Source: Yoonia algicola (GTDB lineage: Bacteria > Pseudomonadota > Alphaproteobacteria > Rhodobacterales > Rhodobacteraceae). From it: DNA of 32,000 nt. Positions within the stretch are counted from its first letter, which is position 1; each line of letters opens with the position of its first letter. Position numbers and translations under genes: made by a program. The stretch is from contig NZ_CP151762.1 in the NCBI RefSeq assembly GCF_038443675.1, positions 3,112,987 through 3,144,986 on the forward strand. Direction: 5' to 3'. Shown one piece after another: positions 2,820 to 17,116 of this stretch. The notes beneath the pieces were generated by a model, which saw nothing but the letters and a program-made list of their open reading frames with translations, ran no database searches and was not told the DNA's origin.

Positions 2820-2830
2820 TCGGACCACGC

Positions 2831-2870
2831 GTGGGTTGCACCCACCCTACGTAGGGTGGGTGCAACCCAC
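2831..2870. repeat. Perfect 40-bp palindrome, REPIN-like (two inverted GTAG-headed hairpin units)
   Basis: Sequence is GTGGGTTGCACCCACCCTAC|GTAGGGTGGGTGCAACCCAC. Each half is itself a GTGGG-ttgca-CCCAC hairpin. Confidence 0.7.
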
Positions 2871-2888
2871 CGCATGACCAAACAAACG

Positions 2889-2919
2889 AAAGGCCGCTCC
2901 AGAAATGGGGCGGCCTTTT
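2889..2919 (+). terminator. Rho-independent terminator after tuf
   Basis: Stem aaaggccgctcc / ggggcggccttt (12 bp with one G-U pair), loop agaaat, and a trailing T-run. Confidence 0.7.
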
Positions 2920-2973
2920 GACTATTAGGCTTATAGTTGGGAAACAAACACGACTAGAGCAAATGAGGGTTTA

Positions 2974-4011
2974 ATGACTACGTTGTATCGCATTCTTATT
3001 GATACCTGCATTTGGCTTGATCTAGCTAAGAGCTACAGGTCTGCCCCGCTGGTCCATGCACTATTTGAAATGTGCAATAATGCTGAACTTGAGATCATTG
3101 TCCCTGACATTGTTTTGGAGGAGTTTGCGCGGAACAAAGACCGGATTTCATCAGAAGCTACGAAGTCGTTGCAAACTCATGTTAGATTAGTGAAGCAAGC
3201 CATTCCAAGCCATGCTGTCGGGGATCAGCAGCGGAATGCCCTTGTATCTCTTGACGATATTGACTTCACCGCAGCTGTGGGCAGCAGTCCCAGTATAGTA
3301 GCACAAGTAGAAGAATTGATGTCTCACCCCGAGAACATCAACATCGAAACCACGACCTTTCATCGCTCTAGGGCAGCTTTGCGCGGCTTGGAAAAACAAG
3401 CACCCTTTCATCGTGACACGAACAATATTGCAGACGCCATTCTGTTTGAGGTCTATGATGAACTCCGGTTAGGGAAAGCGCGAGAGCATATTGCGTTTGG
3501 TTTCGCCTCAACTAACTTTAGGGACTTCAGTGACCCGAGAGGAGACAATCGACTGCCTCATCCAGAGTTAGCATATGCTTTTTCTGAAAAGTCACTATTT
3601 ATCACTGACATCGCAAAGTTTGTTCAGGACGTCAGCCCTGACTTGTTGAATGACTTCGATTTACATCATGGATTGGCACCTGACTTCCGTTCTCTCTCTG
3701 ATCTTATGCTTGAAGAGGAGAAGTTAACCGACATGATCTGGTACTCTCGGCATATGGCAAGGCGAGCGGCTATCGAGAACGGTAATATCAAGGTGCTTGC
3801 AGACCAAGATTACTCTCGAGACCCATATAGACCCGGTGAGATACTTGATACCGTTTGGGAGGGTGCCCTCGCTGCAGCCAAAGAAGTCGAACTTCGATAT
3901 GGATTGGAAAACCTTGGTCCATGGGACGATTTTGAGTGGGGCATGCTAAACGGCAAGCTTTCAGCAATACGATGGATGCTTGGATATGATTGGGACATGC
4001 TAGATACCTGA
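2974..4011 (+). CDS. PIN-like nuclease domain protein with unrecognised Trp-rich C-terminal domain (345 aa)
   Basis: A GAGGG SD lies 5 nt upstream of the ATG. The N-terminal ~190 aa carries acidic residues in PIN order: D10 (ILIDTCIW), E49/E50 (IVPDIVLEEF), D154 (NNIADAILFEV), N181/D184 (FASTNFRDF). I do not recognise the C-terminus (GPWDDFEWGMLNGKLSAIRWMLGYDWDMLDT). The sequence is visibly AT-richer than the flanking genes. Confidence 0.6.
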   Translation: MTTLYRILIDTCIWLDLAKSYRSAPLVHALFEMCNNAELEIIVPDIVLEEFARNKDRISSEATKSLQTHVRLVKQAIPSHAVGDQQRNALVSLDDIDFTAAVGSSPSIVAQVEELMSHPENINIETTTFHRSRAALRGLEKQAPFHRDTNNIADAILFEVYDELRLGKAREHIAFGFASTNFRDFSDPRGDNRLPHPELAYAFSEKSLFITDIAKFVQDVSPDLLNDFDLHHGLAPDFRSLSDLMLEEEKLTDMIWYSRHMARRAAIENGNIKVLADQDYSRDPYRPGEILDTVWEGALAAAKEVELRYGLENLGPWDDFEWGMLNGKLSAIRWMLGYDWDMLDT

Positions 4012-4053
4012 CAGCAAAGTGCGACTTTAACTTACTACAACTGCACACGCCCC

Positions 4054-4082
4054 TTTACACACCCCCCGACTCCCCCTATACG
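4054..4082 (+). promoter_or_regulatory. Sigma70-type promoter for rpsJ operon (TTTACA-N16-CTATAC)
   Basis: cccTTTACAcaccccccgactccccCTATACGCC. It is nearly identical in layout and -10 context to the elements at 7775-7802 and 16991-17018. Confidence 0.5.
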
Positions 4083-4206
4083 CCCGCTATCCATCACGGG
4101 GTGCGCCATGCGTGCCCCTTTTACGTTGGATCAAAAGACGCGATGAGGGCTCTGGATGAGCCAAGGTCCTCCTCTCCGATCTAGGCCCTAATCAAAGGGT
4201 GATGAC

Positions 4207-5382: not shown

Positions 5383-6002
5383 TGAAGGCTGATGCAATCA
5401 AACTGGACGGCAAGACAGCCGGTTCCGTCGAACTGAACGACGAAATCTTTGGTCTTGAGCCGCGCAAGGACATCTTGCACCGCGTCGTTCGCTGGCAGCG
5501 TAACAAGGCAATGGCAGGTACACACGATGTGCTTGGTCGTTCCGAGGTGAGCTATTCCACCAAGAAGATCTATCGCCAGAAGGGCACCGGTGGCGCACGT
5601 CACGGGTCGCGCGGCGCGCCGATCTTCCGTTCCGGTGGTACATACAAGGGGCCAACACCCCGTAGCCACGCGCATGATCTGACAAAGAAGTTCCGCAAGC
5701 TTGGTCTGAAGCACGCCCTGTCCGCGAAAGTGGCCGCAGGCGAGCTGGTGATCGTTGACACCATCGACGTCAAAGACGCCAAGACCGGTGTACTGGCCAA
5801 AATGGTCGGCGCTCTGGGCTGGAAACGTGCGCTGATCATCGACGGTGCCGAAGTGAACGAAAACTTCGCCAAGGCCGCCGCCAACATCACAACCATTAAC
5901 GTTCTGCCATCCATGGGCGCGAACGTTTACGACATCCTGAAGTCGGACACACTCGTCCTGACCAAAGCAGGTGTCGAAGCTCTGGAGGCCCGTTTGTCAT
6001 GA
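5382..6002 (+). CDS. rplD: 50S ribosomal protein L4
   Basis: 206 aa. The start overlaps the rplC stop (TAATG). The sequence contains [21 protein letters not shown]. Confidence 0.98.
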
Positions 6003-6295
6003 ACGCCAAGGCAGAACACTACGACGTGATCCGCAAGCCGATCATCACCGAGAAAGCAACGATGGCTTCTGAAGCCAATGCCGTTGTTTTCGAAGTGGCA
6101 ATCGACGCGAACAAACCAATGATCAAGGAAGCTGTTGAAAGCCTCTTTGGTGTAAAGGTCAAAGCGGTCAACACATCGATCACCAAAGGTAAAGTGAAGC
6201 GCTTCCGTGGATCCCTGGGCACACGCAAAGACGTGAAAAAAGCCTATGTGACGCTCGAAGAGGGCAACACGATTGACGTGAGCACCGGTCTGTAA
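5999..6295 (+). CDS. rplW: 50S ribosomal protein L23
   Basis: 98 aa. It overlaps rplD by [18 protein letters not shown] is the L23 N-terminus. Confidence 0.98.
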
Positions 6296-6317
6296 GATCG
6301 GTTCGCGATGAAGTTAG

Positions 6318-6346
6318 AAAGGCCCCCGCACTGCAGGGGCCTTTTT
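6318..6346 (+). terminator. Rho-independent terminator after rplW
   Basis: Hairpin aaaGGCCCCcgcactgcaGGGGCCttttt with a T5 run. Confidence 0.7.
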
Positions 6347-6362
6347 CGTTTGAGGGCAGGGA

Positions 6363-6405
6363 GTCGGGGCAAGCCCCGACCTACGTAGGCCGGGGCCTGC
6401 CCCGG
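6363..6405. repeat. REPIN-like element (GTCGGGG..CCCCGACCTAC|GTAGGCCGGGG..CCCCGG)
   Basis: Sequence is GTCGGGGcaaGCCCCGACCTAC GTAGGCCGGGGcctGCCCCGG. The same unit recurs at 15378-15428 and as a half unit at 16292-16313. Confidence 0.75.
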
Positions 6406-6470
6406 TGATGCAACGGTTGCCGCAAATGCAAGCGCCAGCGATGGCTCATGGGGTCGTATAGGCTACACAC

Positions 6471-7052
6471 CTAGTCTTTTTCCGTTGGATAGATCTTGTG
6501 CTCAGGATCCCACCAAACAACATAGAAAGTTGACTTTTGGCGGTATCCCCAAATTCTTTGCGTTGATCCGATCCTGAAGCGAAACAGCTCTTCCTCCTCC
6601 CGTCCGATCTTTAACCACCTTGACTGCGCTTCTCCACAAATTGAATCCCAGCTTTGGTCATGATGCTTCTTTCTGCGCTTTCGTTTGGACCCAGTTCTTT
6701 GGTCCAGTATCTCGGCCCAAGTTAAAGTACTCATCATGATCATTGTGGATTTGACTACGCACTGGTCGCCGCTTGTTCTTGCAGTTGTGCACCAGTTTCG
6801 ATGCTGCCCCCATGACCATTCATCTTCCCGATCAGCACATTCGTGAAGAACGTAGTCCATGCGCATTTGCATGATACTCTGAGGGTCAGCTCCTGTGCGA
6901 GGAAGTTCTTCAGTGCCTACGACTTCCGCCAATCGTGGATTTAGGTCTTGCTGAACCCGCTCAGAGAAACGAACCGATCGTTTTTGTTTTTCCAACTTCT
7001 TCGCAAGTTTGCGATCGATCCGTGCTTGCTTCTTACTAGTACGCTCGGCCAT
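6471..7052 (-). CDS. Candidate toxin partner of the Panacea antitoxin; 193-aa basic, Trp/His/Cys-rich protein of unrecognised family
   Basis: Its ATG overlaps the upstream gene's stop (TAATG, 7050-7054). It has a Lys/Arg-rich N-terminus, a KRKRRKK patch, and the C-terminal strand-like motif ELFRFRIGSTQRIWGYRQKSTFYVVWWDPEHKIYP. Two hand-counted 60-nt lines gave 43% GC. Confidence 0.55.
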   Translation of the reverse strand: MAERTSKKQARIDRKLAKKLEKQKRSVRFSERVQQDLNPRLAEVVGTEELPRTGADPQSIMQMRMDYVLHECADREDEWSWGQHRNWCTTARTSGDQCVVKSTMIMMSTLTWAEILDQRTGSKRKRRKKHHDQSWDSICGEAQSRWLKIGREEEELFRFRIGSTQRIWGYRQKSTFYVVWWDPEHKIYPTEKD

Positions 7053-7501
7053 TAGTTGGCGGCAGATTGTAGTCCGGAATAATACTCATGCATATCAGCG
7101 TGAGTTATCTCTTCATTGCAGTTTTGGCCGTCAGACACTCCTGCGCGATCGCGCGCTATGTTCCAAGGTGCTTCAAGGTGTGTTAGATCGCTTAGCCACT
7201 GGGCTGACTTGTTACCATAAAAATCCAGCACGACTTTGATGACTTCTTTCTGATTATCACTCAGTCTGGTTGGGTCGCCCGGGATCGAAGCCCGAGAGAC
7301 TCTGAATTGTCCTCGGTGTCGGGCATACAAATCTGGAGAAACAGGACCGTTGGCCCAAGCTTCAAACCTCTCGTCAAACAGCTGTTCTTCTCGCCAAACC
7401 AAAGACCAACTCTGTGCGTAATAGACAAGCTTTTGCAGCTTCATAGAAGTCATTTCGCCGAGCTCGTCCAGAACGAACGCAGCAACATCGTGAACAGACA
7501 T
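7052..7501 (-). CDS. Panacea (DUF4065/PF13274, SocA/GepA-like) antitoxin-domain protein
   Basis: MTSMKLQKLVYYAQSWSLVWREEQLFDERFEAWANGPVSPDLY is the hallmark DUF4065 core. I start it at ATG 7501 rather than the track's TTG 7513, because GGAGGGAAGC immediately upstream then serves as the SD. Confidence 0.85.
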   Translation of the reverse strand: MSVHDVAAFVLDELGEMTSMKLQKLVYYAQSWSLVWREEQLFDERFEAWANGPVSPDLYARHRGQFRVSRASIPGDPTRLSDNQKEVIKVVLDFYGNKSAQWLSDLTHLEAPWNIARDRAGVSDGQNCNEEITHADMHEYYSGLQSAAN

Positions 7502-7628
7502 GCTTCCCTCCAATGAGTTTGTCTAAGTGTAGCTAAGCACACCTTTTTGCATTCCAATAACCGACTAATCAAGTTAATGCGAGCATTTGCTAGGTTTTCA
7601 TGGAATTTGGGGCAGAAAGTGAGTCATT

Positions 7629-7654
7629 TTGGACGTGCGACTTGGACGTGCGAC
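7629..7654. repeat. Tandem direct repeat, 2 x 13 bp (TTGGACGTGCGAC)
   Basis: There are two exact adjacent copies at 7629-7641 and 7642-7654. They are followed by gcTTGG, a partial third start. Confidence 0.9.
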
Positions 7655-7774
7655 GCTTGGCAAAAAGACTCTGGTGTTCCTTCCATAGGTAAAGCGGTTC
7701 GATAACTATACGAAGTTAGTGGAAATAATACGTTAACTGCGCCATCCACCTAGGAATCTTGGCTATCTAATCCC

Positions 7775-7802
7775 TTGCCACCTTCACCCCTCCCCGCTAT
7801 AC
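7775..7802 (+). promoter_or_regulatory. Sigma70-type promoter for rplB operon (TTGCCA-N16-CTATAC)
   Basis: cccTTGCCAccttcacccctccccgCTATACGCC. It is a close paralogue of the rpsJ and rplO promoter candidates. Confidence 0.5.
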
Positions 7803-7937
7803 GCCCTCAATCACCTGACCTCGGGATTCGTTCCGGGGTCTTTGTGGTATACCTATGGGCACCTACGGGGGCCTCTCACATCAGGGTTCCTGCTGATCTA
7901 ATCATGGGGGCCCGCCAAGCAAACGGAAGAAGCTAAC

Positions 7938-8780
7938 ATGGCACTCAAGTCGTACAAACCGACGACGCCGGGCCAGCGTGGGCTGGTGCTGATCGACCGT
8001 TCGGAGCTTTGGAAAGGACGTCCTGTCAAATCCCTTACTGAGGGTCTGACGAAATCGGGCGGCCGGAACAACACCGGACGGATCACCATGCGTCGTATTG
8101 GTGGGGGCGCAAAGCGTCTTTACCGCATCGTCGATTTCAAGCGTAACAAGCTGGATATGCCTGCTGTTGTTGCACGGATCGAATATGACCCGAACCGCAC
8201 CGCATTTATCGCGCTGATCCAGTACGAAGACGGTACACAGAATTACATCCTTGCCCCCCAGCGCCTCGCGATTGGTGACAAGGTGATCGCATCCGCCAAG
8301 GCTGACATCAAGCCAGGCAACGCAATGCCCTTCAGCGGCATGCCTATCGGTACGATCGTTCACAACATCGAAATGAAAGCAGGCAAAGGCGGCCAGATCG
8401 CCCGTGCAGCCGGTACCTACGCCCAGTTTGTTGGTCGTGACGGTGGCTACGCGCAGGTCCGTTTGTCATCCGGTGAATTGCGCCTCGTACGTCAGGAATG
8501 CATGGCCACTGTCGGTGCTGTGTCCAACGCGGACCACTCGAACCAGAACTTCGGTAAAGCAGGCCGCATGCGTCACAAGGGCATCCGCCCATCTGTGCGT
8601 GGTGTTGCCATGAACCCGATCGACCACCCGCACGGTGGTGGTGAAGGCCGGACATCTGGTGGTCGGACGCCTGTGACTCCTTGGGGTAAAGACACCAAGG
8701 GCAAGCGTACCCGTAACAAGAACAAAGCGTCGCAGAGCCTTATCATCCGCTCGCGTCACGCCAAGAAGAAGGGTCGTTAA
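7938..8780 (+). CDS. rplB: 50S ribosomal protein L2
   Basis: 280 aa. It contains [15 protein letters not shown] and HPHGGGEGR. Confidence 0.99.
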
Positions 8781-10573: not shown

Positions 10574-10654
10574 ACCGTTAAATCCGTAGGATTTGACGGG
10601 GTGCGGTGTAGCGAATTTGCGAAGCAAACTCGCGGGCCGCACACAGTAGAGATT

Positions 10655-10690
10655 AAAAGCCCCCGCTGAAAGATTGGCGGGGGCTTTTCT
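10655..10690 (+). terminator. Rho-independent terminator after rplP
   Basis: aaaaGCCCCCGCtgaaagattgGCGGGGGCttttc, a perfect 8-bp GC stem with A/T extension. Confidence 0.75.
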
Positions 10691-10740
10691 TTGGTTAGTG
10701 AGATAGTGATAACTGGGCCATAAGAACTCAGGAGGTTTCA

Positions 10741-10974
10741 ATGACATTTACAATGGTCGGACGCTTTATCGCTAAAACTGCAATCGTATTGGCAGCTCTG
10801 CGGATTGCCACAGCACTCTTGGTTATTTTCAGTGATGACCCGATCGTCGCAGCATCGAGTCTTCTAGGCTCGCAGACAACGGGCGAGGCAATCGATCAGG
10901 CGGTATATGTCGTGATTTTTGCGATATGCTTAGGTGTCCTCACAGATATCAGCCGCGCTGTTCAGCGCGACTAA
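10741..10974 (+). CDS. Small hypothetical membrane protein (77 aa, two hydrophobic helices)
   Basis: A strong AGGAGG SD lies 5 nt upstream. There are two hydrophobic segments (AKTAIVLAALRIATALLVIF; AVYVVIFAICLGVLT). I recognise no family. Confidence 0.5.
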   Translation: MTFTMVGRFIAKTAIVLAALRIATALLVIFSDDPIVAASSLLGSQTTGEAIDQAVYVVIFAICLGVLTDISRAVQRD

Positions 10975-11059
10975 ATTAAACGGAATTTCGCAACCGTACC
11001 GCCCGGCTTGCCGGGCAGCGCCCACCCCGAGGTCCGGTCGCTGCCCTCTGTTGCGGGTA

Positions 11060-11680
11060 TCACCCCCAACTATAATTAAAGCTCACCGAAATCCGTTCTT
11101 CCTCGGACATATTCATCGGCACCTCGTGCCGTAGCCAGCTTTCCCATAGCAGCACATCGCCGACCTCGGGCTTGGCATAGAAGAACGTGCGCAACTCGTC
11201 GCGCGCATCTTTCACGCGGGTAGGGGCGGCCATCATCATCGCAAGACGGGGGTCTTCGAATTTGATCGCACTCGCACCATCGGGCATGGCGACGTAGGTC
11301 GTGCCGCTGATCACCGAATGGGGGTGGATGTGGCTGGTGTGGATGCCGCCTTCGGGCAGGATATTGATCCAGATGTCCTCGAGTTGCAGTTTCTTGTCGC
11401 CAAGGTCGAACTGCACATCTTTGGCGAATGCCGCGACATGGGCGTCGAGCACTTTCACCAGATCGGCAAAGATTGGGAACCGCCACGGCAGGTCGGAAAG
11501 CGAGGCGTAGGAGGTATAGCCTGCATAGCCGTTTGCCTCGCACCAGTCCTGGCCGGCTTCATCATCATCGGCGATGACAAGGCAAGAGTTCTCTAGCTCG
11601 GCTGCGTTGATGGGATCGCCAAGCTCAGAGAGTTTGGCGTGATAAAGACGGGTCGCGAAGAGGGATTTGATTTGGGTCAT
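11060..11680 (-). CDS. 2OG-Fe(II) oxygenase superfamily protein, TIGR02466/PF13759-like
   Basis: 206 aa. The pattern WINILPEGGIHTSHIHPHSVISGTTYVAMP...FEDPR...GDVLLWESWLRHEVPMN...RISVSFNY matches this family's His-rich cupin core. It is convergent with rplP. Confidence 0.75.
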   Translation of the reverse strand: MTQIKSLFATRLYHAKLSELGDPINAAELENSCLVIADDDEAGQDWCEANGYAGYTSYASLSDLPWRFPIFADLVKVLDAHVAAFAKDVQFDLGDKKLQLEDIWINILPEGGIHTSHIHPHSVISGTTYVAMPDGASAIKFEDPRLAMMMAAPTRVKDARDELRTFFYAKPEVGDVLLWESWLRHEVPMNMSEEERISVSFNYSWG

Positions 11681-11853
11681 GGGATGCTCTTAGCGGATGC
11701 GGTTCGGCAGGGCGAGTGCAAGATGTGGTTGAGATAGGTTTCATGCCGTCCTGGACCGGATCCGGTACCTCTTGCTGGCGGCAATGTCAGAGGTCCCGGA
11801 TCAAGTCCGGGACGCCATGCTGTGACAAGCTGCTACTCTTTGTCCACAAGGGG

Positions 11854-11882
11854 TTGCTTTGTGTGTCGTTGGGGTCTAAACG
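11854..11882 (+). promoter_or_regulatory. Candidate promoter for rpmC operon (TTGCTT-N16-CTAAAC)
   Basis: gggTTGCTTtgtgtgtcgttggggtCTAAACgg. It is weaker than the CTATAC promoters. The same -10 (CTAAAC) occurs upstream of rpsM. Confidence 0.35.
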
Positions 11883-11962
11883 GCGCACTTCTACCCCCAC
11901 TCCATCGGGAATCGGGTGACGTGTTGCACGGCCCGCCGGTGATGTTGAAAAAGGAAAATGGC

Positions 11963-12169
11963 ATGAACGCCAACGAACTGCGGGATAAAACGCCCGATCA
12001 GCTCCGTGAAGAGCTGGTGAACCTGAAAAAAGAATCCTTCAATCTGCGCTTTCAGCAGGCCACTGGTCAGCTCGAAAACACAGCAGGCATCCGTGCGGCC
12101 CGCCGCAATGCCGCGAAGGTCAAAACAATTCTGAACGAAAAGGCCGCTGCTGCGGCATCGGAGGCTTAA
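11963..12169 (+). CDS. rpmC: 50S ribosomal protein L29
   Basis: [31 protein letters not shown] is the L29 N-terminus. The start is placed at ATG 11963 (AAGGAAA SD). The track ORF from 11822 is an in-frame upstream extension. Confidence 0.95.
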
Positions 12170-12172
12170 TCC

Positions 12173-16284: not shown

Positions 16285-16291
16285 GTCGGGA

Positions 16292-16313
16292 GTCGGGGTG
16301 AACCCCGACCTAC
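16292..16313. repeat. Single REP-like unit (GTCGGGGtgaaCCCCGACCTAC)
   Basis: It matches the left arm of the elements at 6363 and 15378. It is preceded by a partial duplicate GTCGGGA (16285-16291). Confidence 0.7.
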
Positions 16314-16326
16314 GGTTTGAAATGAA

Positions 16327-16359
16327 AGCGCCTCGCAGGAAACTGCGGGGCGTTTTTTT
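16327..16359 (+). terminator. Rho-independent terminator after rpmD
   Basis: CGCCTCGCAGgaaaCTGCGGGGCG followed by T7. Confidence 0.75.
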
Positions 16360-16502
16360 GTGCGGAATAGATATTTTGGCATGCGATTGCTGCATGGCGG
16401 CATTCGCAATGCTGCGGTTGCACAGTGACCTGCTGCGACCTAATTCTTTGGTAAGAGAACGGCCGCTTTTGCGGCACCCTAGAATTCAGAAGGCTAACAA
16501 GC

Positions 16503-16736
16503 ATGTCAATTACTACAAACACATTCGCGCCCGTAAAGTTGGGCGCACGTCTTTCAACAATGATCTCGGATCACTTTGCAGCGTTGAAACAGGCCCGCGC
16601 ACAAAAGGCCGTGTTTTTCGCAGTCAGAGCCCAGCTGAACCTTATGTCAGACCGTGATCTGGAAGATATCGGCATCAATCGTCTGCTGATTGACGATGTC
16701 GCCCGCGAAGCGGCGTTTGGCAAAGCTGAAGACTAG
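16503..16736 (+). CDS. DUF1127 (PF06568) small protein
   Basis: 77 aa. The C-terminal LMSDRDLEDIGINRLLIDDVARE is the DUF1127 signature (..SDR.L.DIGI.R..I). Confidence 0.8.
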   Translation: MSITTNTFAPVKLGARLSTMISDHFAALKQARAQKAVFFAVRAQLNLMSDRDLEDIGINRLLIDDVAREAAFGKAED

Positions 16737-16867
16737 TGTTCTGTAAGGTGGACGTTGATCCATCTGACGACCAGCAACGGAAGCGTTTCGCCGGTCACTA
16801 ACGCAGAATTAACCCGACTACAGCGAGCTCGCTAATCTGCCAGCATCTGCACATTTGTATGTACGGG

Positions 16868-16890
16868 TTGTGTACGCGCTGTGTACACAA
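16868..16890. promoter_or_regulatory. Inverted repeat TTGTGTAC-N7-GTACACAA (candidate operator)
   Basis: Perfect 8-bp arms, with extra TGTA(T/C) repeats on both sides. It lies ~100 nt upstream of the rplO promoter candidate. Confidence 0.3.
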
Positions 16891-16990
16891 TCTGTATGGC
16901 TCACCCCGCGGTTTTTCTACCGTCAAACCACAAACGGGGCCAAATGCCGTGAATCCATCACGTCGCTGCAATGTCTGTTGCATCTCCCAC

Positions 16991-17018
16991 TTGAACCACC
17001 CCAACCATCCGTCTATAC
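16991..17018 (+). promoter_or_regulatory. Sigma70-type promoter for rplO-secY-adk (TTGAAC-N16-CTATAC)
   Basis: cacTTGAACcaccccaaccatccgtCTATACGCC. This is the third copy of the CTATACGCC promoter type. Confidence 0.5.
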
Positions 17019-17116
17019 GCCACCAGTCGGTGGCACTCGCCCCCGACTCACAACTGTAACGCCGTGTTTGGCCGCTCCCGTCGCTGGGGGCCAATTCCGG
17101 CACAAGGAGAAGCGAC

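Follow-up and report, generated by a model that had tools for sequence, protein, structure and literature searches.

A predicted PanA-PanT (cluster T1) module in a variable slot between rplW and rplB of Yoonia algicola

Proteins with a Panacea (DUF4065) domain, PanAs, have been catalogued by Kurata et al. (2022, PMC8832971) as the antitoxins of two-gene toxin-antitoxin (TA) modules, on the criteria that a partner gene lies at most 100 nt away and that the two-gene architecture is kept in at least two species, with the partner toxins, PanTs, placed in clusters such as T1. The T1 rows span Corynebacterium, Rhizobium, Streptomyces, Lactobacillus and Mycoplasma, including M. agalactiae, and the sole T1 pair that was tested, from C. 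cadaveris, is entered in Supporting Information (SI) Table S1 of that work as 'toxic / failed to neutralise / mRNase', the toxicity having been seen in E. coli, where 8 of the 25 PanTs assayed were non-toxic. The NetFlax study (PMC10440598) reports direct neutralisation of toxins by stand-alone Panacea proteins and suggests in addition a sensory role for Panacea, chiefly in multidomain PanAs. Here we describe a pair of genes of this kind, which we call panA and panT, that sits between the ribosomal-protein (r-protein) genes rplW and rplB in a 32,000-nt stretch of the Yoonia algicola genome (contig NZ_CP151762.1, positions 3,112,987 to 3,144,986; hereafter the window, in which all positions are counted unless the locus of a relative, denoted by an L number, is named). 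That the locus is a PanA-PanT(T1) module is close to certain. The best explanation of the data as a whole, to which we assign a probability of about 0.7, is that of a horizontally acquired two-gene T1 module in which an RNase-like toxin is held by PanA.

The antitoxin candidate panA (7052-7501, minus strand, 149 aa) and the toxin candidate panT (6471-7052, minus strand, 193 aa) are both taken from the open reading frame (ORF) list, and the stop codon of the first overlaps the start codon of the second in a TAATG at 7050-7054 (minus strand) that is read directly in the sequence; a GGAGGG lies 6 nt ahead of the panA ATG. Both genes run antisense to the flanking rplW (5999-6295, plus strand) and rplB (7938-8780, plus strand). 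An earlier note on this DNA had described the two minus-strand frames and the coupled antitoxin-then-toxin order, and these hold up, as do the peptide motifs it quoted from both products, all of which are found in the translations. The identical NCBI products of Y. algicola are named 'Panacea domain-containing protein' (WP_342069686.1, PanA) and 'hypothetical protein' (WP_342069685.1, PanT). With isoelectric points of 5.0 for PanA and 9.5 for PanT the products form an acidic/basic couple, and the Lys/Arg-rich N-terminus that had been reported for PanT is evident from 14 such residues among its first 40. The GC content, previously given as 43%, is 48.8% for the pair, with only 4 of 17 60-nt lines at or below 45%. 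Relative to its neighbours the base composition of the pair is clearly foreign, the GC content at third codon positions (GC3) amounting to 0.48-0.50 as against 0.55-0.69 in the adjoining r-protein genes; the window as a whole has a GC of 0.547. Both ORFs are full length, the family-invariant residues of PanT are all intact and the coupling of the two genes is kept; panA and panT are real, conserved genes. Upstream of panA, 128-153 nt from its start, a repeat search returned a perfect tandem 13-nt repeat (TTGGACGTGCGAC x2, 7629-7654), a duplication that could be an operator or promoter element. No recognisable DNA-binding domain is present in PanA, and no panA promoter was found in a scan for sigma-70 promoters and terminators.

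PanA matches the Pfam model PF13274 (SocA_Panacea) with 71.8 bits (cutoff 25.7, E 1.1e-19) over residues 22-113 (nt 7163-7438), as the earlier note had expected when it called the protein a Panacea/DUF4065 antitoxin, and it consists of the Panacea domain without an extra N-terminal domain. On the NCBIfam SocA equivalog NF047745 it reaches 53.6 bits, so far under the 190-bit cutoff that an identity of PanA with SocA itself is ruled out. With respect to the criteria of Kurata et al., panA overlaps its partner by 1 nt, and the architecture recurs at 75 of 80 genome loci and at 26 of 26 viral loci.

The assignment to T1 comes through Marinibacterium profundimaris 22II1-22F33 (L026), in which a Panacea ORF ends at 2829 and a homologue of PanT starts at 2830, corresponding to a gap of 0. 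This homologue is full length (188 aa), has the same N-terminal basic helix and is 60% identical to PanT over the core. The same strain has a row in Dataset S1 of Kurata et al. (2022, PMC8832971), where PanA WP_088652112.1 and PanT WP_088652111.1 are entered as a T1 pair of architecture 'A|T' with gap 0; L026 was identified with this row by strain, gene order and gap, not by accession. On the strength of this match the M. profundimaris homologue puts PanT in the family that Kurata et al. call PanT cluster T1. Actinoplanes regularis DSM 43151 (L079) likewise has a T1 row in Dataset S1 (PMC8832971). T1 accessions and further T1 characterisation were not found in the main text and supplements of NetFlax (PMC10440598), nor did we find later literature on PanAT T1. 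The suggestion that PanT is a candidate new Panacea-associated toxin fails because its family is already catalogued as T1; the family is, moreover, large and nearly always paired with Panacea, and novelty is weakened further by homology to both NCBIfam MAG6450_fam and the C-terminal part of NsnC, at scores under the curated cutoff (see below). What does stand is the statement that the 193-aa protein belongs to no described family by Pfam, since no model matches either the protein or 150 relatives.

The PanT family is neither new nor rare. A word-indexed search gave 46 homologues; hmmsearch, run exhaustively over 1.84 billion cluster representatives, gave 2,584 at E <= 1e-3 (1,854 at <= 1e-10 and 230 at <= 1e-30), a family size that is a lower bound, counted as representatives at 50% identity. 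The protein cluster of the Y. algicola PanT itself has one member on one contig, and its nearest relative is 57% identical. A scan with one genome per species yielded 337 relatives from Alpha- and Gammaproteobacteria, Actinomycetota, Chloroflexota, Bacillota, Mollicutes, Bacteroidia, Acidobacteriota, Planctomycetota, Cyanobacteria and others. A PanA hidden Markov model (HMM) was made from seven partner proteins and then run on the fetched PanT loci. Of 80 genome loci from many phyla, 75 have a Panacea ORF directly upstream and in the same orientation. The five exceptions comprise two loci cut by contig ends, one single fused ORF (L082) and two that are genuinely Panacea-less (L057 and L099). 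Among viral contigs of IMG/VR that encode a PanT relative, Panacea is upstream in every case (26/26), and as a control ten of ten upstream ORFs sampled across phyla score above Pfam's Panacea cutoff. Panacea is also upstream at L001 (as an uncalled ORF), L002, L003/L004, L005/L006, L007/L008 and L012-L014, and among the contexts examined individually it is missing only at the cyanobacterial P0046. The 1-nt panA/panT overlap is the same at L002 and L003, and over the 80 genome loci the gap is mostly -17 to +21 nt, more negative values arising because each start was set at the first possible codon past the preceding stop. PanT homologues elsewhere have unrelated genomic contexts; in L005 and L006 the pair is set between McrBC and AbiTii/SIR2 genes.

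Two kinds of unusual family member were noted. In L082 (2320-3405), from an uncultured alphaproteobacterial metagenome-assembled genome, Panacea and toxin share one unbroken 362-codon frame, whether through a natural fusion or through a frameshift in the assembly. Orphan toxins, or toxins with some other partner, may be what the Panacea-less members represent (L057, L099 and P0046 (L009-L011), from Actinoplanes campanulatus and the cyanobacteria Iningainema and Rhizonema).

An AlphaFold2 (AF2) model of full-length PanT has a predicted local distance difference test score (pLDDT) of 88.3, and that of the core domain alone (residues 62-193; 6474-6869, minus strand), delimited by the model and by conservation, a pLDDT of 91.3 and a predicted TM-score of 0.85. 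Ahead of the core the model places a Lys/Arg-rich helix (residues 7-37; 6942-7034, minus strand; 10-residue pLDDT blocks of 97 and 96 over residues 11-30) and a linker of lower confidence (residues 38-60; blocks of 75, 54 and 74). Both are missing in short family members, which begin at about residue 62, and because of this the helix and linker are, on comparison of the members, an optional extension. In the model the core runs from a short strand through two short helices, a strand and a helix (140-148) to a three-stranded antiparallel sheet (155-182). Conservation over 150 diverse members is complete for W112 and G169, 99% for R166, H185 and W180, 98% for R145, 97% for R160, 95% for A142 and 93% for D74, and falls to 78% for H131, 70% for H130 and 69% for Y188.

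According to HMM matches, the C-terminal module of PanT (residues 143-188; 6489-6626, minus strand) is common to the MAG6450 family and to the C-terminus of NsnC (PB-BECR1). The NCBIfam model NF046006 (MAG6450_fam) matches PanT with E 5.7e-8 over profile positions 56-102 of 103 and 123 of the 150 family members, with a best E of 1.1e-9, and divergent PanT members align over positions 15-102. The PADLOC NsnC model matches PanT with E 2.8e-6 over positions 237-280 of 284, that is, its last 44, and 129 of the 150 members, with a best E of 4.3e-9. These matches indicate that PanT is homologous to MAG6450_fam yet outside the curated family. NsnC's C-terminal domain, from the Menshen anti-phage system, has been counted among the BECR-fold RNases, with a triad like that of YafQ (PMC12065111). 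In the structural comparison with Foldseek about 40 of the top 50 matches in the PDB are toxins of the RelE superfamily (HigB, HigB2, YoeB, RelE, YafQ, ParE and PrpT), with HigB, YoeB and RelE heading the ranking, although only the sheet superposes well, over 27-33 columns. On balance we lean slightly towards PanT being an RNase.

A number of results weigh against the proposal of an RNase-like toxin held by its PanA. The scores on MAG6450_fam all fall below the 40-bit cutoff, at 33.2 bits for full-length PanT, 35.9 for the core and 18-35 for eight divergent members. No Foldseek match is significant, the best E being 0.29 and the target-normalised TM-score at most 0.46, and nothing at E <= 0.001 was returned for the full-length and core models against the PDB or for the core against BFVD. 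In hhalign, YafQ (PF15738) gives 0.2% and HigB (PF05015) 4.3%, the latter out of register; the whole family and two C-terminal sub-alignments were used as inputs in local, greedy and global modes, and all were negative. Neither the RelE/ParE-type models of Pfam nor any other Pfam family matches PanT, 34 members or 150 members, and searches of PDB sequences with PanT itself and two profiles of its family produced chance matches only (nitrile hydratase, hemocyanin and Cas12). The retention of H130 and H131, the candidates for the first His, in just 70-78% of the 150 members means that an H-R-H triad is not secure. Finally, the only T1 pair that has been assayed, from C. cadaveris, was not neutralised by its own PanA in E. 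coli, and the T1 rows of Dataset S1 are without HHpred annotation, so that the basis of the 'mRNase' label is not visible (PMC8832971). The earlier note had called the likeness to RelE/HigB only loose, and with a best Foldseek E of 0.29 and hhalign values of 0.2-4.3% that wording was apt; in the Foldseek comparison it had proposed, RelE-type toxins head the list and none of them is significant.

Membership of PanT in the RelE/ParE superfamily was considered and not adopted, there being no Pfam match and a negative hhalign result. The sole HigB signal in hhalign extends over 22 columns and aligns PanT residues 65-86 (6795-6860) with the GDREGYWSITV strand pair of HigB; it involves the N-terminal D-x-x-G-x-W-S-W motif of PanT, not the C-terminal sheet, and may be due to chance or may hint at two RelE-like strand motifs in the core.

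The position of the pair within the S10 operon had been called odd, which is correct as far as it goes, but it is explained by a variable slot followed by a promoter-like block and a leader for rplB. A survey of the rplW-rplB junction in relatives, which the earlier note had recommended, was made with ten contigs encoding an L23 identical to that of the window; because the flanking DNA is 88-97% identical to the window, the ten contigs are taken as close relatives rather than as the same strain. In each the pair is replaced by other genes or by none. L020 has no called gene at the junction and a 430-nt spacer, and since the segment at 6406-7771 (about 1.3-1.4 kb, GC 0.481), delimited by blastn against this spacer, replaces 108 nt of the empty site, the cargo is just the TA module and its upstream region. 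Elsewhere the junction holds a 2OG-Fe(II) (2-oxoglutarate-Fe(II)) oxygenase (L015 and L024), a 218-aa protein of unknown family (L016), a nucleoside deoxyribosyltransferase-like gene (L023), four genes encoding a 64-aa ORF, a dehydrogenase, a 2OG oxygenase and a 309-aa unknown (L018), or a 65-aa ORF with two adjacent ORFs that jointly have AAA_15 and OLD-TOPRIM domains by Pfam (L022). In three further relatives, whose fetched loci end before rplB, it holds an 89-aa ORF and a chemoreceptor (MCPsignal; L017), a dehydrogenase and the start of a 2,862-aa protein (L019), or ABC-transporter genes (L021). The cargo in relatives is thus unrelated, on either strand, or absent. Around the insert we found neither an integrase or transposase nor a tRNA gene, and no pair of direct or inverted repeats that flanks and brackets the cargo. 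We take the pair to be horizontally acquired cargo because of its low GC and GC3, its single-member cluster on a single contig and the different genes, or lack of genes, in the ten relatives. The two ORFs at 4593-6495 of L022 look like a split OLD-family nuclease, a defence-type gene.

Both edges of the slot, which spans 6296-7937, are well marked. Between the convergent rplW and panT lies an intrinsic-terminator hairpin found as an inverted repeat (6318-6344; AAAGGCCCCCGCA/TGCAGGGGCCTTT, then TTTTTCG on the plus strand), whose stem and T-run are kept in 10 of 10 relatives and which falls within the predicted minimum-free-energy fold; the terminator scan had missed it, as the loop, in the way the scan counts it, exceeds an 8-nt limit. 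At the downstream edge a block of about 165 nt ahead of rplB is kept in all seven alignable relatives. It contains a putative promoter (promoter-like block 7775-7856, plus strand; TTGCCA at 7775-7780, a 17-nt spacer and TATACG at 7798-7803) and an L2-Alphaproteobacteria r-protein leader (RF03142; 7857-7935, plus strand) that scores 49.1 bits in Rfam against a gathering threshold of 37.8 (E 4e-9) and abuts rplB. This leader has been described as regulating rplB, rpsS, rplV and rpsC (Eckert and Weinberg 2020, PMC7247131, Table 1). The promoter-like block and L2 leader ahead of rplB argue that in this lineage rplB begins its own transcription unit and that the spacer tolerates insertions. Between the two, a terminator-like hairpin (7817-7840, plus strand; GACCTCGGGATTCGTTCCGGGGTC, then TTTGTG) was returned by the terminator scan and is nearly invariant in the seven relatives; it could belong to a longer leader or to an attenuator.

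Other junctions of the cluster are occupied in a similar way. The tuf-rpsJ slot (2820-4206) holds a 345-aa PIN_12-domain protein (2974-4011, plus strand; low GC, 0.47), upstream of whose gene are a palindrome of 40 nt (2831-2870) and, at 2890-2919, a terminator hairpin; in relatives the same junction carries a major facilitator superfamily transporter, LprI, a 5'-nucleotidase, proteins of unknown family, or nothing. A 77-aa hydrophobic ORF (10741-10974, plus strand) and a 206-aa 2OG-FeII_Oxy_5 protein (11060-11680, minus strand) lie in the rplP-rpmC slot (10574-12172), and the genes after rplP differ in relatives L016 and L020. The rpmD-rplO gap of 830 nt (16285-17116) contains a 77-aa DUF1127 protein (16503-16736, plus strand). 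At the upstream edge of the rplW-rplB slot a GC-rich palindrome resembling repetitive extragenic palindromic (REP) elements and centred on CCTACGTAGG was found as an inverted repeat (6365-6404), and the same 10-mer has a second copy at 2846-2855 in the tuf-rpsJ slot, two copies in the window compared with 0.01 expected by chance. Palindromes of this type also occur in L020 (4616-4647), L016, L018 and L023, and in some relatives a further copy, lacking in the window, lies between the L2 leader and the hairpin of rplB. The two slots examined closely, tuf-rpsJ and rplW-rplB, both have a terminator and a REP-like palindrome at the upstream edge, and the latter has the promoter-like block and leader at its downstream edge. 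The REP-like palindromes at slot edges may be mobile or recombinogenic. We found no literature on r-protein-operon hotspots in Rhodobacteraceae.

In the mechanism that we favour, panA and panT would be co-transcribed and translationally coupled, and the acidic stand-alone PanA would bind the basic PanT and hold it inactive by direct, type II style neutralisation; upon loss or triggering of PanA, PanT would arrest growth. That PanT is toxic we regard as probable. That PanA binds and silences it directly is also likely, if somewhat less so, because validated PanAT pairs with a stand-alone Panacea neutralise in this way (PMC10440598). PanT would most plausibly act as an endoribonuclease whose active site is made up of R145, R160, R166 and H185 on a RelE/BECR-like helix and three-stranded sheet, and the Lys/Arg-rich N-terminal helix may aid binding to RNA or the ribosome or serve as the grip for PanA. 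The biological role would most likely be selfish maintenance and/or abortive-infection phage defence, the latter hinted at by the island with McrBC and AbiTii/SIR2, the viral contigs and the motif in common with the Menshen effector. Turnover of the slots may proceed by homologous recombination with the near-identical r-protein genes as arms. Functionally the module is not tied to the ribosomal genes; it occupies one of several lineage-specific cargo slots in the r-protein cluster of Yoonia/Loktanella.

Four other readings of the locus were weighed against that of an acquired T1 module with an RNase-like toxin. The pair might be chiefly a phage-defence sensor-effector in which Panacea senses an infection cue and releases or activates the effector in abortive infection. 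Its setting between McrBC and AbiTii/SIR2 genes in L005 and L006 points in this direction, as do the OLD-TOPRIM/AAA_15 nuclease in the same slot of L022, the PIN_12 protein in the neighbouring slot of the window, the toxin motif in common with NsnC, the 26 viral or prophage contigs that bear the pair and the sensory role of Panacea proposed by NetFlax (PMC10440598). PADLOC, however, has no system model for PanA or PanT, and the NetFlax idea concerns mainly multidomain PanAs, while the PanA described here is stand-alone (PMC10440598). We consider such a role as the chief one doubtful; it is in any case compatible with the acquired-module explanation and not exclusive of it. The notion that PanT is toxic and yet no RNase, acting instead as a ParE-like protein-binding poison, as a nucleic-acid binder through its basic helix, or by an unrelated fold or activity, draws on the negative profile-profile tests against YafQ and HigB, on a Foldseek result that is not significant and in which just the 27-33-residue sheet superposes well, and on the N-terminal half of the core (D74, W79, W81, W112), which has no counterpart in known toxins. 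It is unlikely nevertheless, as the near-invariant R145, R160, R166 and H185 have the look of catalytic residues, the C-terminal module shares homology with the NsnC domain that is counted as an RNase and has a triad like that of YafQ (PMC12065111), and the T1 representative was labelled 'mRNase' by Kurata et al. (PMC8832971).

That the genes are an inert remnant, non-toxic or decaying hitch-hikers, is suggested by the 8 of 25 PanTs of Kurata et al. that were non-toxic in E. coli (PMC8832971), but with full-length ORFs, intact family-invariant residues and preserved coupling this is very improbable. Least credible of all is a functional location in which the module is wired into r-protein expression, either through antisense control of rplW/rplB or as a toxin tuned to ribosome synthesis. 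Although the pair is antisense to the cluster and the upstream region of panA adjoins the promoter-like block of rplB, the slot of ten close relatives is either empty or filled, on one strand or the other, with unrelated genes, panT is parted from rplW by a conserved hairpin and a palindrome, and homologues elsewhere are in unrelated contexts; a functional link to the S10 operon is rejected because the content of the slot varies among relatives. Beyond the acquired-module explanation itself, we raise tentatively, and would not be surprised to see it fail, a joint claim about slots and toxin. Its first part is that tuf-rpsJ, rplW-rplB, rplP-rpmC and rpmD-rplO are fixed cargo slots of the Yoonia/Loktanella r-protein cluster through which unrelated genes, TA and defence genes among them, are swapped between species by homologous recombination; its second is that the core common to T1 and MAG6450 represents a distinct, undescribed branch of BECR-like RNases, with its own Trp-rich N-terminal sub-domain and a basic helix.

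As one more member of the PanT cluster listed first in the dataset of Kurata et al., the locus is of modest value in itself. The cluster it belongs to is, however, very large (at least 2,584 clusters at 50% identity) and nearly exclusive to Panacea, yet it has no Pfam model, and neutralisation has not been validated nor an activity demonstrated for it; R145, R160, R166 and H185 are the residues that stand out. The C-terminal module common to T1, the MAG6450 family and Menshen NsnC links a TA toxin to a phage-defence effector. The ribosomal-protein cluster is usually regarded as being among the most stable parts of a genome; in this genus its fixed junctions carry variable cargo and make it a mosaic, which is of relevance both to users of r-protein synteny and to studies of where defence genes land.

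Of the known systems, the ribosome-dependent mRNA interferases RelE, HigB, YoeB and YafQ resemble PanT in being small basic toxins of two-gene modules, in having helices ahead of an antiparallel sheet with a His and an aromatic residue at its end, and in occupying the top places of its Foldseek list. They differ in that no Foldseek, HMMER or hhalign match to PanT is significant, that the PanT core is about 40 residues longer with an extra Trp-rich N-terminal sub-domain, to which a 60-residue basic helix and linker are added, and that the antitoxin is Panacea instead of RelB, HigA, YefM or DinJ. NsnC PB-BECR1 (PMC12065111) has in common with PanT the C-terminal motif of about 44 residues, with conserved His and Arg residues in both, whereas the region ahead of the motif is unrelated, NsnC having its own N-terminal inactive-PIN domain and the partners NsnA (ParB/DUF262) and NsnB (ABC ATPase) where PanT is partnered by Panacea. 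The NCBIfam 'MAG6450 family protein' (NF046006) matches the C-terminal 46 residues of PanT, and a Mycoplasma agalactiae pair is included in Kurata's T1, but the N-terminal part of the PanT core is unmatched, the scores are under the cutoff and the family has no described function.

SocAB of Caulobacter crescentus is a type VI TA system whose SocA has the Panacea/DUF4065 domain in common with PanA. The replication clamp is the target of SocB, and SocA serves as an adaptor for ClpXP, not as an inhibitor. PanA differs from SocA by its 53.6 bits on the equivalog model with a cutoff of 190, and SocB was placed in cluster T10 by Kurata et al. (PMC8832971), while the PanT described here is a T1. Closest are the PanAT T1 pairs (PMC8832971), in which a stand-alone Panacea gene comes first with the toxin directly downstream at a gap of about 0, and in which the toxin is homologous, the M. 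profundimaris member being 60% identical over the core with the same basic helix; the family is likewise found in many phyla and phages. T1 differs in being an in-silico cluster whose tested C. cadaveris pair was toxic and not neutralised. The family itself is already known, and what is new here is this T1 member of Y. algicola, placed inside a ribosomal-protein cluster.

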